From: Candidatus Magasanikiibacteriota bacterium
GTDB lineage: Bacteria; Patescibacteriota; Patescibacteriia; Magasanikbacterales; UBA922
NCBI GenBank assembly: GCA_049287025.1
Contig: JBAQFA010000051.1
Location: 65,697 to 129,696, forward strand
Reading direction: 5' to 3'
DNA: 64,000 bases
Within the stretch, counting starts at the first letter, position 1. Every line of letters begins with the position of its first letter. Below the pieces are notes generated by a model. That model had not been told where the DNA came from. It saw nothing but the letters and a program-made list of their open reading frames with translations, and did not search any database. Positions 5,459 through 48,758 of this stretch are shown here, in pieces. Made by a program: the position numbers and the translations under genes.

Positions 5459-5540
5459 GCCCAGGTGGCGAAATTGGTAGACGCACTACCTTGAGGTGGT
5501 AACGCCGTAAGGCATGGAGGTTCGAGTCCTCTCCTGGGCA
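5459..5540 (+). tRNA. tRNA-Leu (anticodon GAG), type II with long variable arm
   Basis: Acceptor GCCCAGG/CCTGGGC. Anticodon loop TTGAGGT. Variable arm GCCGTAAGGC. T-arm GGAGG-TTCGAGT-CCTCT. Discriminator A. CCA is not encoded. Confidence 0.85.
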
Positions 5541-5543
5541 CAA

Positions 5544-5582: not shown

Positions 5583-5999
5583 TTCATTACATAGTAGATG
5601 ATCAATCTTCGACTTTATGTTGGAGGTAGGAAAGTCCGAACATTCACCCGATGTAAATTGGGTAATAGAGTAGCGGGTAACTCCCGTCGGTCGCGAGACT
5701 AGAGGTGCGAGCAGTGACGCCGAGACGCGAAAGTGTCGAGGCACCACGTAAAAGCGTAAGCTTTTCACGTGGTGAACTCTGATAGTGATATCAGAGGTGA
5801 AACGGCAAAATCCTTACTTGAATGAAAGAACAGCCTTTCGATTCACTTCGTTCGCTTAGAGCAGACTAATTATTGGATGCTTTGGGCGAATGAAGTGCAA
5901 TTTGATTGGACAAGTTAGTTCGCTTGACCCAGCTGGTAACAGCCTGGGCAGATAAATGATCGTCCTAGACAAAATTCGGCTTATAGCTATGTAATGAAC
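5583..5999 (+). ncRNA. rnpB: RNase P RNA (bacterial type A)
   Basis: 13-bp P1 helix: gttcattacatag at 5583-5595 pairs with ctatgtaatgaac at 5987-5999. Conserved 'GGAGGTAGGAAAGTCCGAACA' (P4 5' strand) and 'ACAAAATTCGGCTTATAG' (P4 3' strand, cf. ACAGAAcCCGGCTTA). Locally GC-rich with no ORF. Confidence 0.85.
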
Positions 6000-37336: not shown

Positions 37337-38503
37337 ATGAACACATCAGACTTTGACTACAATTTACCTTTAGAATTAATTGCACAAAAACCAGTAGAGC
37401 CACGAGATTATTCACGGTTGTTTGTGGTTGATAGAAAAGAAATAGGAAAAGATCCTTCGGCGAAGTTTACCCCGATGAATATCGGGGCTCAGGACAAGCA
37501 TTTTTATGATATTATTGATTATCTAAAACCAGGTGATTTGATAGTTTGGAATAATTCCAAAGTTTTTAAAGCTAGATTATTTGGTGAATTAGAATCAACC
37601 AATAATCAAGAATTGTTTGAACATAAAAAAAAGATTGAAGTGTTTTTAGTTAGAGAAATGGAAAATAAAGGCGTATGGAAAGTTCTTGCTAAACCCGGTC
37701 GGCATGTGAGAGTGGGTATGAGAATTAGATTTTCAGAAGACTTTTATTGTGATGCTATGATTAAAGATCCAGAAGGAACTATTCTAGTGCAATTTCCATA
37801 TGATGCCGAGACAGTTATGAAGAAGGCGAATAAATATGGTCATATTCCAGTACCGCCATATGTAAAAGACGAACCAGATCAAATTGAAACTTACCAAACT
37901 GTTTATGCCAAAGACGAAGGGTCGGTCGCAGCACCAACAGCTGGTTTTCATTTTACCAAAGAACTAATTGAAAAGATAAAAGCCAAAGGCGTGGAGTTTG
38001 CTGAGGTGACTTTGCATGTTGGACTTGGAACTTTTTTACCAGTGAAATCAGAAAGAGTAGAAGATCACACTATGCATAGCGAGTGGATAGAATTGTCACA
38101 AGAAAATGCAGATAAGATTAATAAAGCCAAAGCTGAAGGTAGACGGGTGGTGGCGGTTGGTACTACGACTGTAAGAACTTTGGAAGGTGTGGCGCAAAAG
38201 TTTCTCCCCCTACCAGGGGGAGTTAGAGGGGGTCTGCAACCAGAAGGACCCCACCCAACCTCCCCTTATAGGGGAGGAGCTGTTCATGCCTACAAAGGAG
38301 ATATTAATATTTTCATCACCCCAGGTTTTGAATTTAAAGTTGTTGACGCAATGATTACTAATTTTCATTTACCAAAGTCTACCCTACTTATGTTAGTGAG
38401 TGCGTTTATTGGTGATCGGGAAAAGACTTTGGAAATATATAATCAAGCTGTGGCAGAAAAATATCGATTCTTTAGTTTTGGGGATGCAATGTTTATACAT
38501 TAG
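37337..38503 (+). CDS. queA: S-adenosylmethionine:tRNA ribosyltransferase-isomerase, with an ~28-aa in-frame insertion
   Basis: 'FDYNLPLELIAQKPVEPRDYSRL', 'VGTTTVRTLE', 'ITNFHLPKSTLLMLVSAF'. The insertion 'LPLPGGVRGGLQPEGPHPTSPYRGGA' is encoded by three GC-rich hairpins (38204-38277). Confidence 0.85.
   Translation: MNTSDFDYNLPLELIAQKPVEPRDYSRLFVVDRKEIGKDPSAKFTPMNIGAQDKHFYDIIDYLKPGDLIVWNNSKVFKARLFGELESTNNQELFEHKKKIEVFLVREMENKGVWKVLAKPGRHVRVGMRIRFSEDFYCDAMIKDPEGTILVQFPYDAETVMKKANKYGHIPVPPYVKDEPDQIETYQTVYAKDEGSVAAPTAGFHFTKELIEKIKAKGVEFAEVTLHVGLGTFLPVKSERVEDHTMHSEWIELSQENADKINKAKAEGRRVVAVGTTTVRTLEGVAQKFLPLPGGVRGGLQPEGPHPTSPYRGGAVHAYKGDINIFITPGFEFKVVDAMITNFHLPKSTLLMLVSAFIGDREKTLEIYNQAVAEKYRFFSFGDAMFIH
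38204..38277. repeat. Three consecutive GC-rich palindromes inserted in frame in queA
   Basis: ctcccccta-ccagggggag at 38204-38222, ggggtc...gacccc at 38229-38252, cctcccc-ttata-ggggagg at 38259-38277. About 65% GC within a 35% GC gene. Confidence 0.55.
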
Positions 38504-44471: not shown

Positions 44472-46505
44472 ATGATTGATTTTCAACAAGAACTAAATGA
44501 TGAACAATTAAAAGTCGTTACCAATGGTGATGGACCTTGTTTAGTTTTGGCTGGGGCGGGATCTGGTAAAACACGCACGATTACTTATCGCGTAGCCTAT
44601 TTATCAGAACAAGATGTAAAGCCAGAAAATATTTTACTAGTAACTTTTACGAATAAGGCAGCACGGGAAATGCTAGAGAGAGTAAAGGTGTTAACTGGTG
44701 GTGATATTCATTTGCCATGGGCGGGGACGTTTCATCATATTGGTTATAGATTACTGAAAAAATATGCGACTCTGATTGGCTACAAAAATAATTTTTCTGT
44801 ATTAGATAGTGAAGATAGTTTGGATTTGATTAAACTTTGTCTTAAAAATGAAGGTATTGATCGAAAAGAAAAACGATTTCCTTCCCCAGCTGTGGTTCAG
44901 GCAATTATTTCTTATGCGCGGAATTCAGAAACCACGATTGCTGATGTTTTGGATTTGAAGTATGAACATTTTTTATATATCAGTGATATAATTGTTAGAA
45001 TTGCTGAAGATTATCAAAAAAGAAAAATAGCTGCGAATGTGATGGATTTTGATGATCTACTGGTGAATTGGTATATGTTGTTAGTTAAGGAACAAGGAGT
45101 AAGGAGTAAGTTAGCCGAACAATTTGAATATATTTTGGTTGATGAATATCAGGATACAAATAAAATTCAGGCCTCAATAATAAATTTATTAGCTTCTAAA
45201 CATAATAATTTATTGGTCGTGGGTGACGATGCTCAGAGCATTTATTCTTTTCGAGCGGCTGATATACAGAATATCTTAGCGTTTGAAAAAAAATATAGTC
45301 AAGCTAAAATTTTTAAATTGGAAACTAACTATCGCTCTACGCCAGATATTTTGGATTTGGCCAATGATATTATCGCGAATAATCTAAAGCAATATGAAAA
45401 GAATTTAAAAGCCATTAATACTAATTTTACTAAACCAGAACTGATTGCTTTTGCTAGTCAGGCCGAAGAAGCGCAATTTATAGTGCAAAGAATTAAAGAA
45501 TTGGAAAATGAAGGTATAGACCTAAATAAAATCGCCGTATTATTTCGTGCAGCTTATCATTCCCAAGCTTTGGAAATGGAACTGGTAAAACGGGGGGTTG
45601 ACTATGATTATCGTGGCGGAGTAAGATTTTTTGATCGAGCGCATGTCAAAGACGTTTTGGCTTATTTGCGGATTATAAATAATATTGCCGACGAGGTGGC
45701 TTGGCGGAGAGTTTTAAATATGCAAATTGGCATCGGCCCAACTTGGGCAGAGCGGATACTGTCATTAATTATTCAGAATCCAGAATTAGCAAATGACCTG
45801 TCTCATGTTGGTGCACAATTGCCAGCCAAAGCTCAGGTAGGGTGGAATGATTTTTTACAGATTTATGAAAGATTAATGTTAGTTGAAAATAAAAATCCAG
45901 GTGATCTTATTCTTGCAGTATTAGAATCTAAATATACAGAATATATTGAAAATGAATATCCAGATTATCGTGAACGTTTGGAAGATATAAAACAATTATC
46001 TTTATTTTCAAAAAATGAAACCGAACTAGATAAGTTTTTGGCTGAGGCTACGTTGCAAGAGAATTTTCGTTCACTTACCCCCGGCCAATCTCTCAAAGAA
46101 AGAGAGGAGAAAATTGTTCTTTCTACGATTCATCAGGCCAAGGGTTTGGAATGGGAGGCAGTGTTTGTGTTGGGTTTGTCAGCTGGACAATTTCCCAATG
46201 ATCGGGCTTTGCGTGAGCGTGATGGTATAGAAGAAGAAAGGCGTTTGTTTTATGTAGCAGTCACTCGCGCTAAAAAATATTTATATCTTACATATTCATT
46301 TGGTGGTGGATGGGGTGATTCTTTGGCTGGACCAAGTATGTTTATTGATGAGCTTAATAAAAAATTAGTGTCGGCCGAAGGTGTTGGAGGAGGAAATGTG
46401 TTTGAAGATTTTGATGATGAAGTGGAATATATAGATGAAGATTCTCAAATTATAGATAGTAAAAAGTTTCCTGGGAGTTTTTTGAAAGATTTGGGTGAGT
46501 TGTAA
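44472..46505 (+). CDS. ATP-dependent DNA helicase, UvrD/PcrA/Rep family
   Basis: 677 aa. Walker A 'LAGAGSGKTRT', 'LLVTFTNKAAREM', 'LVDEYQDTN', 'VGDDAQSIYSFRAAD', 'STIHQAKGLEWEAVFV'. Confidence 0.85.
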   Translation: MIDFQQELNDEQLKVVTNGDGPCLVLAGAGSGKTRTITYRVAYLSEQDVKPENILLVTFTNKAAREMLERVKVLTGGDIHLPWAGTFHHIGYRLLKKYATLIGYKNNFSVLDSEDSLDLIKLCLKNEGIDRKEKRFPSPAVVQAIISYARNSETTIADVLDLKYEHFLYISDIIVRIAEDYQKRKIAANVMDFDDLLVNWYMLLVKEQGVRSKLAEQFEYILVDEYQDTNKIQASIINLLASKHNNLLVVGDDAQSIYSFRAADIQNILAFEKKYSQAKIFKLETNYRSTPDILDLANDIIANNLKQYEKNLKAINTNFTKPELIAFASQAEEAQFIVQRIKELENEGIDLNKIAVLFRAAYHSQALEMELVKRGVDYDYRGGVRFFDRAHVKDVLAYLRIINNIADEVAWRRVLNMQIGIGPTWAERILSLIIQNPELANDLSHVGAQLPAKAQVGWNDFLQIYERLMLVENKNPGDLILAVLESKYTEYIENEYPDYRERLEDIKQLSLFSKNETELDKFLAEATLQENFRSLTPGQSLKEREEKIVLSTIHQAKGLEWEAVFVLGLSAGQFPNDRALRERDGIEEERRLFYVAVTRAKKYLYLTYSFGGGWGDSLAGPSMFIDELNKKLVSAEGVGGGNVFEDFDDEVEYIDEDSQIIDSKKFPGSFLKDLGEL

Positions 46506-46561
46506 ATTGTATTATTGAATTTATAATAATAAAAACAGCCTTTGTGGGGTTGTTTTTTTGT

Positions 46562-46885
46562 ATAGAGTTTAATTATAGGGCGCAGAGATGGAGTGCTGCG
46601 CGGGTTATCACGACGCCGTGCAGGCCGGTAGCACAGCTCTGAGCTGAACTACCCGGATTGCATTGCAACACTCCATCTGGACGCTTTCACGTCCTTGCCC
46701 TCCTTTTTGGCTTTTGCAGTCTGTAAACACGCTTTGATGCGGCGACAAGGGGGTGCCTTGATTGGCATACCCTTTGTGCTTACAGACGGCGTCTGCCTTT
46801 TCCATTTTCCTCCTAGTTAGAGTAAACAACAACCGTGGTGCGTGAACTATCTTCGGTTGTTGTTTCTCTCGGTTGGTGTATTTGA
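46562..46885. other. GC-rich (~55-60%) structured island with no convincing ORF: candidate ncRNA of unknown class or horizontally acquired fragment
   Basis: Nested inverted repeats: agatggagtg at 46578-46587 pairs with cactccatct about 90 nt downstream. Hairpins cagctc-tg-gagctg and ttgcattgcaa. Hairpin aaacaacaaccg...cggttgttgttt near the 3' end. Confidence 0.3.
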
Positions 46886-46919
46886 GATATATCATTATTT
46901 ATTAATTTTGTCAACAGTC

Positions 46920-46948
46920 TTGACTTTATATAAATTTCATACTATAAT
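46920..46948 (+). promoter_or_regulatory. Sigma70 consensus-like promoter for ndk
   Basis: TTGACT at 46920-46925, 17-nt spacer, TATAAT at 46943-46948. ATG lies 30 bp downstream. Confidence 0.5.
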
Positions 46949-46977
46949 CTAGCCAATAAATTTTAATCTATATTTAT

Positions 46978-47457
46978 ATGAATTTTGAAGGAATTTTTGA
47001 AAAAACGATTTTAATTGTTAAACCAGATGGCGTACAAAGAAGTTTGGTTGGTGAAGTGTTGCGTCGTTTGGAATTAAAAGGTCTTAAAATTGTTGGTCTA
47101 AAAATGATGTTACTAGACGAAATAAAACTTCGCGAACACTACGCTCATCATGTAGAAAAGCCATTTTATTCTGGTTTGGAAAAGTTTATGAAATCCAGCC
47201 CAGTGGTTTGTATTTGTGCTGAAGGTAAAGGGGCCGTAGAAGCTGTGCGTTTGATCGCTGGCACCACTAATGCGGCCAAAGCTGACGGTGGCACAATTCG
47301 TGGTGACCTCGCTATGGGTATGTGTAATGTGGTACATTGTAGTGATAGTGTAGAAACTTCCAAAGCTGAAGTAGAGAGATTTTTTAAAGAAGGTGAAATC
47401 TTTGATTATGATAAGACAGAATATTTGCATGTATATATGGATGATGAACGAGTGTAA
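46978..47457 (+). CDS. ndk: Nucleoside diphosphate kinase
   Basis: 159 aa. 'TILIVKPDGVQRSLVGEVLRR', 'NVVHCSDS' (active-site His), 'RGDLA'. Confidence 0.9.
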   Translation: MNFEGIFEKTILIVKPDGVQRSLVGEVLRRLELKGLKIVGLKMMLLDEIKLREHYAHHVEKPFYSGLEKFMKSSPVVCICAEGKGAVEAVRLIAGTTNAAKADGGTIRGDLAMGMCNVVHCSDSVETSKAEVERFFKEGEIFDYDKTEYLHVYMDDERV

Positions 47458-47529: not shown

Positions 47530-47908
47530 GTACAAAAAGTTATCCACACTAGGTCTTGCAAATTTTTTGGCGTTTTAGTAAGATAAAACAGATAGAAATA
47601 ATATGAATTCACAAAATAACAACCAAAATATATATAAGAACTGGAGTATCAAGTTGTCTATTGTCGTACGCAATCTTTTTGTGTACGTTTTGTATTCTAG
47701 GGTGCTATATATAAATGGTTGCTATAATGATTAATAAATATTTATATAATAAAAAGCACTCTAGAAAAACTAGAGTGCTTTAATTTTATAAAAATTGTTC
47801 TTTAAACAAGGAGGAAATAGGGTAGACAAATATTTTTAACAGATAGATAATTAAAATTAGTTATTTTTCTGGTGGAGATATCAACCAAATATCTTTTGGA
47901 GGGATCCA

Positions 47909-48097
47909 ATGGGAAAACAGGAGTGGACCTGTCCTGGATGTGGTTGTGATGTCAAGAAGAAGAACACTCGGCTCTGCCCCGAGTGTGGAGTTGGTCGGTA
48001 CGATAAAAAGCGTACACCACAAGTTGGTGTGTCGCCGGCAATCATGAGCTTTTTCGAGATTGCTTATCCTCCTGAAACAAGGAGGAAAAAATCGTGA
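47909..48097 (+). CDS. Zinc-ribbon microprotein (CPxCG ... CPECG)
   Basis: 62 aa, 'MGKQEWTCPGCGCDVKKKNTRLCPECGVGRYDKKR'. SD GGAGGG lies 5 nt before the ATG. Locally GC-rich. Competing antisense ORF 47861..48157 rejected. Confidence 0.45.
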   Translation: MGKQEWTCPGCGCDVKKKNTRLCPECGVGRYDKKRTPQVGVSPAIMSFFEIAYPPETRRKKS

Positions 48098-48491
48098 CGA
48101 CAGTATGGGGTGGCGGGAGTATGGACTTGTGGTCTTTCCCGCCACCCTGAGGATCATGACAAAACCGCCAGAAACTTGAGAGAAAAATTTATTGTTCTTT
48201 CAAGGAGGTTACGGCGGTTTTGTTTTTAAATTTGACATGGTTATTTTGATGTGAGATAATATGTTTGATCCTGATAGCTGTGGCAGTTCATATCATATCC
48301 GCAAATATTCATACTTGGGAAACCTATATTTCTCCAGCCTGTGGGCTAGAGGTGCGGTTACCCACCTGATTTTCAGGGGTATGGATATGTCCTGCTTCGG
48401 GCTGATGGATCTACAAAAGACAATCTTAAAGAGGTTGTTTTTTTAACTTGACTTTTGTAATTAATTAGTGTATTATATTTTTGCTTTTTAT

Positions 48492-48565
48492 GGACCCGTA
48501 GCTCAGTTGGTTAGAGCGCTACATTGACATTGTAGAGGTCAGAAGTTCAACTCTTCTCGGGTCTA
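48492..48565 (+). tRNA. tRNA-Val (anticodon GAC)
   Basis: GGACCCG-TA-GCTCAGTTGGTTAGAGC-G-CTACA-TTGACAT-TGTAG-AGGTC-AGAAG-TTCAACT-CTTCT-CGGGTCT-A. No CCA encoded. Confidence 0.85.
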
Positions 48566-48670
48566 CAGAGGATGCTCAGTTTCGGCCAAAGGCCGACCAG
48601 CCTCTGGCTGGGGTTAGAGCGTCCCGATTTTACATCGGGAAGGTCAGAAGTTCAACTCTTCTCGGGTCTA
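48566..48670 (+). other. Partial tRNA-Val duplicate lacking a 5' acceptor strand, with the anticodon arm replaced by hairpin tcccga-ttttaca-tcggga (UUA anticodon-like loop)
   Basis: 48613-48670 repeats GGTTAGAGCG ... AGGTCAGAAGTTCAACTCTTCTCGGGTCTA, the exact 30-nt 3' end of tRNA-Val. The preceding 48 nt contain the hairpins tcggcc-aaa-ggccga and agcc-tct-ggct. No sequence pairs with the 3' acceptor strand. Confidence 0.4.
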
Positions 48671-48758
48671 CTAGGGCTTTGCTTATACTATGCCCTATAA
48701 ATAGTTTACTACTTGAAAAAATTTTATAAGTGTAGTATACTCCTTTTACTTTTTATAA

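Follow-up and report, generated by a model that had tools for sequence, protein, structure and literature searches.

Among the small RNAs of bacteria, RNAIII, SgrS, and SR1 represent molecules that are dual-function or formerly coding. To our knowledge, the regulatory RNAs of Candidate Phyla Radiation (CPR) bacteria, organisms that do not grow on their own, are almost entirely uncharacterized. Candidates for orphan structured noncoding RNAs have been obtained through the GC-IGR approach, which, as outlined in the publications concerned, draws on long GC-rich intergenic regions of AT-rich bacteria (PMC11109978, PMC6429828, PMC8723152).

The window considered here, the whole 64,000-nucleotide stretch of DNA analyzed from a Candidatus Magasanikiibacteriota bacterium, contains a GC-rich island at 46562-46885. 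On the left, the island is flanked by an ORF for a UvrD-like helicase at 44472-46505 (the name UvrD was given in the original prediction), and on the right, it is flanked by ndk at 46978-47457, identified by a Pfam NDK match. No other ORF of the size of uvrD or ndk adjoins the island in the ORF list. The adjoining ndk is also present in the Candidatus Magasanikiibacteriota assembly GCA_049304355.1 (CPR lineage), and the cluster to which the window's Ndk belongs at 90% comprises a single member. The GC content of the island is 0.506 overall, compared to a mean of 0.345 for the window; it rises to 0.58 in the core at 46575-46706 and reaches a maximum of 0.555 to 0.567 in windows of 150 to 200 nt. 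The 55 to 60% GC originally given for the island is therefore correct for the core but too high for the interval as a whole. Outside the locus, the 64 kb contains no 324-nt window that is equally GC-rich, the RNase P RNA gene included (z = 4.1), and blastn and nhmmer searches of the window with the island and its halves show that it is present in a single copy.

A repeat search of the island recovers all of the inverted repeats named in the original prediction (Table 1). Folding energies were compared with those of 100 dinucleotide-preserving shuffles, none of which matches the island on either strand. For the plus strand, the energy is −132.2 kcal/mol (z = −5.7), and for the minus strand, it is −127.2 kcal/mol (z = −7.6), the raw value of the plus strand being slightly better. 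Counts of G.U versus A.C positions per helix are mixed between the strands and do not decide which of them is transcribed.

As read from the sequence, the island on the minus strand most likely forms a self-contained unit comprised of a promoter, a first hairpin domain (D1), a linker with a Shine-Dalgarno (SD)-like motif and an AUG, a second domain (D2), a 3′ domain (D3), and a shared terminator hairpin. The putative −35 hexamer stands back-to-back with the −35 hexamer TTGACT (46920-46925) of ndk, whose own plus-strand promoter, TTGACT-17-TATAAT at 46920-46948, agrees with the consensus at 11 of 12 positions. The putative minus-strand −10 hexamer lacks the usual final T and was omitted by the promoter scanner because the scanner demands a T at position 6. 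D1 carries an 11-nt loop motif, AGUUCACGCA, at 46848-46839. D3 is closed by a 5-bp stem and contains a hairpin capped by GAAA as well as a long arm, the first part of which is a 13-bp helix. The terminator hairpin is good on the plus strand, on which it serves uvrD with a G.U pair and a T run, and weaker on the minus strand, on which it contains an A.C mismatch; the scanner's list omits it. It is presumed to be the 3′ end of the minus-strand unit as well. The SD-AUG linker is probably a single-stranded relic of the start of a mini-gene. Since it is conserved, it could also mean that ribosome binding still matters, a point against a pure RNA reading.

Table 1. Repeats and elements of the island and its minus-strand unit, in positions of the window
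Feature	Position	Strand	Remarks
Terminator hairpin AAAAACAGCC-N7-GGTTGTTTTT	46531..46557	both	Repeat search and direct reading; conserved in L004
D3, conserved 3′ domain	46575..46706	−	z = −6.4 in both species
Inverted repeat AGATGGAGTGCTGC / GCAACACTCCATCT	46586-46599 and 46665-46678		Arms 65 nt apart
65-aa ORF (MEKADAVCKHKG...)	46608..46805	−	Not regarded as conserved coding DNA
Inverted repeat GGTAGCACAGCTC / GAGCTGAACTACC	46627-46653
Inverted repeat TTGCATTGCAA			Among those originally listed; present in the island
D2, branched rod	46707..46802	−	∼95 nt; −38.8 kcal/mol, z = −5.5
Linker AGGAGGAAAAUG, SD-like motif and AUG	46803..46814	−	Counterpart in L004, GGGGGAAAAUG
D1, 16-bp hairpin with 18-nt loop	46819..46869	−	−19.9 kcal/mol, z = −5.3
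Inverted repeat AAACAACAACCG / CGGTTGTTGTTT	46824-46835 and 46854-46865		Arms 100% complementary
−10 hexamer TATATC, putative promoter	46886..46891	−	Preceded by TG (extended −10); 17 nt from the −35 hexamer
−35 hexamer TTGACA, putative promoter	46909..46914	−	Read from the sequence; identical in L004

The only relative of another species that contains the island is UBA11710 (locus L004), with an Ndk that is 97% identical. The parts of the unit are found there in the same order, with the D1 loop motif conserved and both promoter hexamers identical; all three substitutions of the promoter stretch fall into the spacer. No hexamer of the TTGACA type is found in the island-less relatives L134 and L135. 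The background for this comparison is set by ndk, with 89% nucleotide identity and only 59% at four-fold degenerate sites, and by ordinary intergenic DNA, with an identity of 0.60 to 0.72. D3 is ∼95% identical in the two species (0.95, 0.82, and 0.97 in the 40-nt bins across 46586-46705), a level also seen for ndk as a coding sequence, for the tRNAs, and for a 6S RNA candidate when these two genomes are compared. Of the 10 variable columns of D3, 8 are unpaired in the shared fold of the minus strand, and 2 stay paired, changing from U.G to C-G and from U-A to U.G; this association has a one-sided Fisher p of 0.002, with the consensus built from the same two sequences. The minus-strand consensus of D3 contains 43 pairs with two one-sided changes and no pair broken in either species (n = 2 sequences), whereas the plus-strand fold of each species loses 4 to 5 pairs in the other. 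The sequence comparison thus supports the conservation of D3 at the level of a functional RNA, with substitutions that avoid or preserve pairs. Palindromes can also persist in DNA through template switching, without selection on an RNA.

D1 and D2 show an identity of 0.35 to 0.50 between the two species and are effectively unalignable, apart from two motifs kept within them, the D1 loop and GGRGGAAAAUGRAAAA. In either species, both domains nevertheless fold significantly better than shuffled sequence, with z scores from −4.5 to −5.5. D1 of UBA11710 is a 14-bp hairpin in the same place (z = −4.6) with the same loop motif on a stem of unrelated sequence; with two sequences, positional homology of the stems is beyond proof. 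D2 of UBA11710 folds with −32.5 kcal/mol (z = −4.5) and keeps the rod shape, with a length of ∼95 nt in both species.

None of the RNA classes searched matches the island. At gathering scores, the 4227 models of Rfam 15 applied to the whole window give no match at 46500-46950, and at an E value of ≤10 with relaxed filters, they give only junk matches of 14 to 18 bits at the island. The equivalent islands of 20 relatives are likewise without a match. The models cover tmRNA, signal recognition particle (SRP) RNA, 6S RNA, T-box, cobalamin, and other riboswitches, ribozymes, group I and II introns, OLE, HEARO, raiA, ROOL, and GOLLD. The original prediction had found no resemblance to tmRNA, SRP RNA, a T-box, or a cobalamin riboswitch and had left room for some other Rfam identity; ARAGORN detects no tmRNA in the window, and none of the 4227 families gives the island a name. 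A CsrA-sponge-like RNA was considered and rejected, as GGA motifs are not enriched in the island, and so was a retron noncoding RNA or an IscB/TnpB guide RNA, as no gene for a reverse transcriptase or for IscB/TnpB adjoins it. Searches of the 136 related loci described below, performed with blastn and nhmmer for the island and its halves, return the same species and UBA11710 only, and a covariance model of D3 applied to 100 sources returns only the two training sequences.

The folds, the pattern of conservation, and the loss of the reading frame together make an orphan structured small RNA the most likely explanation of the island. Such an RNA would be encoded on the minus strand, with a length of ∼340 to 350 nt, and selection would act on its structure and not on a protein; judged by sequence, this reading stands about evenly between belief and doubt. 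As far as two species allow, the suggestion of an undescribed structured noncoding RNA made in the original prediction has gained support, with no Rfam match, a lost ORF, a conserved D3, and preserved shapes of D1 and D2. The kind of gene is most likely one already known, an independent bacterial small RNA gene in the form of a GC-rich intergenic island, known so far from two closely related species.

Transcription of the proposed RNA would start at the sigma-70-type promoter, TTGACA-17-TATATC with the additional TG, placed back-to-back with the promoter of ndk. The transcript would pass through D1, the purine-rich SD-AUG linker, D2, and D3 and would probably end at the hairpin that also terminates uvrD. 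It would probably have arisen from an mRNA of the type found at this position in sister lineages, in which a GC-rich mini-gene encodes a small protein, either basic or of the zinc-ribbon type, and the 3′ end is structured; the coding part would then have decayed, with the 3′ domain and the D1 loop staying under selection. D3 could serve as a binding platform or as a stabilizing fold. The 11-nt D1 loop, carried on a freely varying stem, would be the place at which a partner RNA or protein recognizes it. A search for a partner site of this loop within the 64-kb window found none.

The wider context of the island is provided by 136 related loci gathered via Ndk. The island occurs in the same species (L001 to L003, with one single-nucleotide polymorphism [SNP]) and in UBA11710 only. 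The A/T SNP at window position 46738 separates L001 and L003 from the window. L001 starts at window position 46619 and L003 starts at 46584, so that two independent assemblies break inside D3. The next closest relatives, L134, L135, L136, and L106, with Ndk proteins that are 89 to 92% identical, contain neither the island nor its promoter, and just ∼80 to 100 nt separate the upstream gene from ndk in these loci. In ∼15 relatives, ndk follows directly after uvrD. A long ORF in L106, coiled-coil by eye, ends at a similar terminator without an island. An ORF of 627 to 707 amino acids without a Pfam match lies between uvrD and the local island in the nearest two relatives with an island, L004 (646-2529) and L005 (412-2535); this ∼1.9-kb gene is absent from the window, in which uvrD abuts the same terminator. 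An all-versus-all comparison of the upstream regions was set aside, as it was swamped by uvrD homology, and the pair that was followed up proved to be an AT-rich plus-strand gene.

GC-rich islands upstream of ndk are found in 22 of 89 distinct loci, with a GC content of 0.55 to 0.73, compared to 0.36 to 0.49 for the whole locus. The GC-rich units located 100 to 650 nt upstream of ndk include those of L005, L013, L024, L032, L036, L038, L042, L061, L062, L066, L070, L079, L094, L110, and L111, among others. In 17 of the 22, the island contains a small minus-strand ORF preceded by an SD sequence. The products of these mini-genes are either very basic peptides of ∼40 amino acids or small proteins with CxxC knuckles, and their ORFs show matches to DZR or Zn_ribbon with E values of 2.5e-4 to 2.3e-3, none of which reaches the thresholds set by Pfam itself. 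Each mini-gene is followed, beside the terminator of the upstream gene, by a long imperfect hairpin whose loop is AT-rich. Islands of different lineages show no sequence relationship. The pairs L047/L052 and L033/L042 have conserved ends around a middle that has been replaced, a mosaic also seen between the window and L004.

This setting gives rise to the rival reading that the island is the remnant of a decaying mini-gene, in which D3 would be kept only as part of a module that terminates or insulates, situated between the convergent units and the promoter of ndk, without a stand-alone function as an RNA. Such a remnant is unlikely. In its favor, several of the 17 SD-preceded ORFs of the relatives encode CxxC pairs, the SD-AUG relic is present in the window, the ORF is truncated in UBA11710, and the terminator-side domain is the best-conserved part in L047/L052 and L033/L042 as well. 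Furthermore, L065 retains one arm only of the hairpin of L062, which suggests a deletion. A plain terminator, however, needs no 130-nt multihelix domain held at 95% identity. D1 and D2 have stayed folded after their sequences diverged past alignment, and the promoter hexamers have been kept in UBA11710, features that argue for an orphan structured RNA and against a mere remnant.

A second rival reading takes the 65-aa ORF, or the 95-aa version that begins with the ATG at 46895, as the gene of a species-specific small protein, the folded RNA being simply its mRNA, structured in its 3′ part. The ORF was part of the original prediction and is indeed present, with the AGGAGG at 46814-46809, only 3 nt from the ATG. 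The plus strand contains, besides the 19-codon ORF first thought to be the only one, a 41-codon TTG-initiated ORF at 46695-46820. Translation would be in line with the AGGAGG, with the conservation of GGRGGAAAAUGRAAAA in UBA11710, and with the real mini-genes of sister lineages at this position, among which L042 and L110 share a conserved peptide. Nonetheless, a protein is quite unlikely. Conservation of the ORF at the amino acid level in relatives, which would have spoken for a protein gene, is not found; in UBA11710, the ORF from the same AUG reads MKNCACK*, the stop following as codon 8 after 7 sense codons. Within D3, indels of 1, 1, and 2 nt shift the frame, so that three different frames are needed to read the ∼95% identical sequence in the two species. 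The 62-aa mini-gene at 47909-48097 serves as a positive control and keeps its frame in UBA11710 with 84% amino acid identity. Among 5.8 billion proteins, neither the 95-aa nor the 65-aa ORF has a homologue, nor does any of the six frames of D3 in either species, and among 1.84 billion cluster representatives, the ORF gives one spurious match to a repeat protein, without a BLASTP alignment. A tblastx comparison of the spacers of the window and L004 with those of the relatives yields noise only. The 65-aa product has no Pfam match at an E value of ≤1 and no CxxC pair, in contrast to a zinc ribbon with its two CxxC/CPxCG knuckles. The SD-ATG spacing of 3 nt differs from the 4 to 7 nt in the mini-genes of relatives. 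The GC content at third codon positions is 0.54 in a window with 34.5% GC overall. As roughly estimated, a stretch of 43 codons without a stop arises by accident in ∼20% of cases at 57% GC. With neither a frame conserved in UBA11710 nor homologues in the two protein sets, the 65-aa ORF was rejected as a conserved protein-coding gene.

A third rival reading treats the island as a mobile or palindromic DNA element (similar to MITEs, REPs, the ends of IS200/IS605 elements, or integron cassettes) inserted between uvrD and ndk, with hairpins that act in DNA. Its presence in some and absence from other close relatives (none in L134, L135, L136, or L106) is in line with mobility, as are the ∼1.9-kb gene of L004 and L005 that the window lacks, the breaks of two assemblies inside the island, and the GC-rich palindromic in-frame inserts found elsewhere, at 38190-38290 and in uvrD of L064. 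The element would, however, be one without a second copy in the 64 kb and without a copy elsewhere in the 136 related loci as searched with nhmmer and the covariance model, and no transposase, integrase, or reverse transcriptase gene adjoins it. A search for terminal inverted repeats or a target duplication around the island returns only AT-rich promoter-like matches, none of them convincing. An integron cassette was rejected separately, as neither strand of 46531-46920 contains an attC core site (RYYYAAC or GTTRRRY). The original prediction had also considered a horizontally acquired fragment, a suggestion that gains no support here. Although the position is variable, nothing similar is found in phage and plasmid records by blastn, and exact D3 patterns are absent from viral contigs (two patterns) and from JGI metagenome contigs. 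A mobile element is very unlikely. On a fourth reading, the island would act in cis on the plus strand and regulate ndk, either as a structured leader or by buffering read-through between uvrD and ndk. This is extremely improbable despite the slightly better raw energy of the plus strand and the G.U pairs that some helices have on that strand only. The island sits after the uvrD terminator and before the near-consensus promoter of ndk, has no conserved plus-strand promoter upstream, and folds differently on the plus strand in the two species with 4 to 5 pairs broken each, and most relatives express ndk in the absence of such an element.

Several other features of the window were observed alongside the island. 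Downstream of ndk, an AT-rich intergenic block at 47586-47745 is 93 to 100% identical in UBA11710, compared to 0.65 to 0.72 for its neighbors; the sole Rfam match there, to RefA9, is weak (E = 0.17) and overlaps its 3′ end. The plus-strand mini-gene at 47909-48097 is GC-rich and encodes a zinc-ribbon protein of 62 aa (MGKQEWTCPGCG...CPECG..., with CPGCG...CPECG knuckles and a basic tail); GGAGGG stands in front of it, and a long terminator hairpin of two tiers comes after it, extending to ∼48230. Loci L023, L088, L089, and L135 have weaker homologues downstream of ndk, and L022 has a weak minus-strand match upstream of ndk. The gene caller of L001 missed this mini-gene. The 6S RNA candidate at 48265-48415 on the plus strand reaches 37.6 bits with RF00013 (gathering score, 46.4; E = 1e-5), and the surrounding block at 48266-48505 is 95 to 100% identical in UBA11710. 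A tRNA-like gene with the anticodon UUA at 48599-48671 (plus strand), which ARAGORN calls tRNA-Stop, scores 20.8 bits with the Rfam tRNA model, compared to a threshold of 29. It sits between tRNA-Val and tRNA-Ile in a gap ∼100 nt longer than that of UBA11710, and the bins at 48546-48625 are unaligned with that species. Far upstream, a tRNA gene at 5459-5541 (plus strand; Rfam tRNA, 49.3 bits), for which ARAGORN prints "tg" and assigns no anticodon, is directly followed by a class A RNase P RNA at 5586-5999 (plus strand) with large insertions, which barely passes its threshold of 100 with 103.4 bits. The insert at 38190-38290 is GC-rich, laden with palindromes (...FLPLPGGVRGGLQPEGPHPTSPYRGGAV...), and in frame within the plus-strand ORF at 37337-38503 (388 aa), which we take to be QueA-like; a similar palindrome of C/G runs is located inside uvrD of L064. 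In-frame palindromic elements occur in Rickettsia, and the two inserts resemble them.

If the reading as an orphan structured RNA is true, the island would be among the few RNA candidates of CPR bacteria with a promoter, a domain layout, and selection at the level of structure. Its immediate importance is limited by its occurrence in two species only, and the surrounding pattern, with mutually unrelated GC-rich units at one position in 22 of 89 relatives, may matter more. This pattern upstream of ndk raises the question of how, in reduced genomes, small genes and RNAs arise, give way to others, and disappear. A further-reaching proposal would see in the island a genuinely new class of three-domain regulatory RNA derived from the mRNA of a fast-evolving mini-gene, and in the site upstream of ndk in Magasanikbacteria, it would see the repeated replacement of GC-rich units with retention of the structured 3′ domain, a cassette-like turnover without a known recombinase in a CPR lineage. 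This proposal is distinctly doubtful.

Compared with known systems, the island, read as a noncoding RNA, resembles 6S RNA in its size, a few hundred nucleotides, and in its long irregular helix, but it has no Rfam match, and the window contains a separate 6S candidate. With RNAIII, SgrS, and SR1, it shares the combination of a structured RNA, an SD-AUG, and a short ORF, with the structure apparently the conserved part; in contrast to them, its ORF is unconserved (65 versus 7 codons), and it shows no sequence or structural similarity to any of the three. The mini-genes of the Magasanikbacteria have the same position, strand, and layout, with a divergent promoter, an SD sequence, a GC-rich body, and a long imperfect hairpin by the terminator. 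The island differs from these mini-genes, and from the one at 47909-48097, by the lack of sequence similarity, CxxC pairs, and a conserved frame, and its 3′ hairpin is expanded to a multihelix domain of 130 nt. Candidates from the GC-IGR approach become named motifs, as the publications on it present the matter, through many covarying representatives; the island, with two, is not yet a motif. In the features by which these publications characterize their candidates, the two are alike: a long intergenic region far richer in GC than the genome around it, a strong predicted fold, promoter- and terminator-like signals, and no match among described families.
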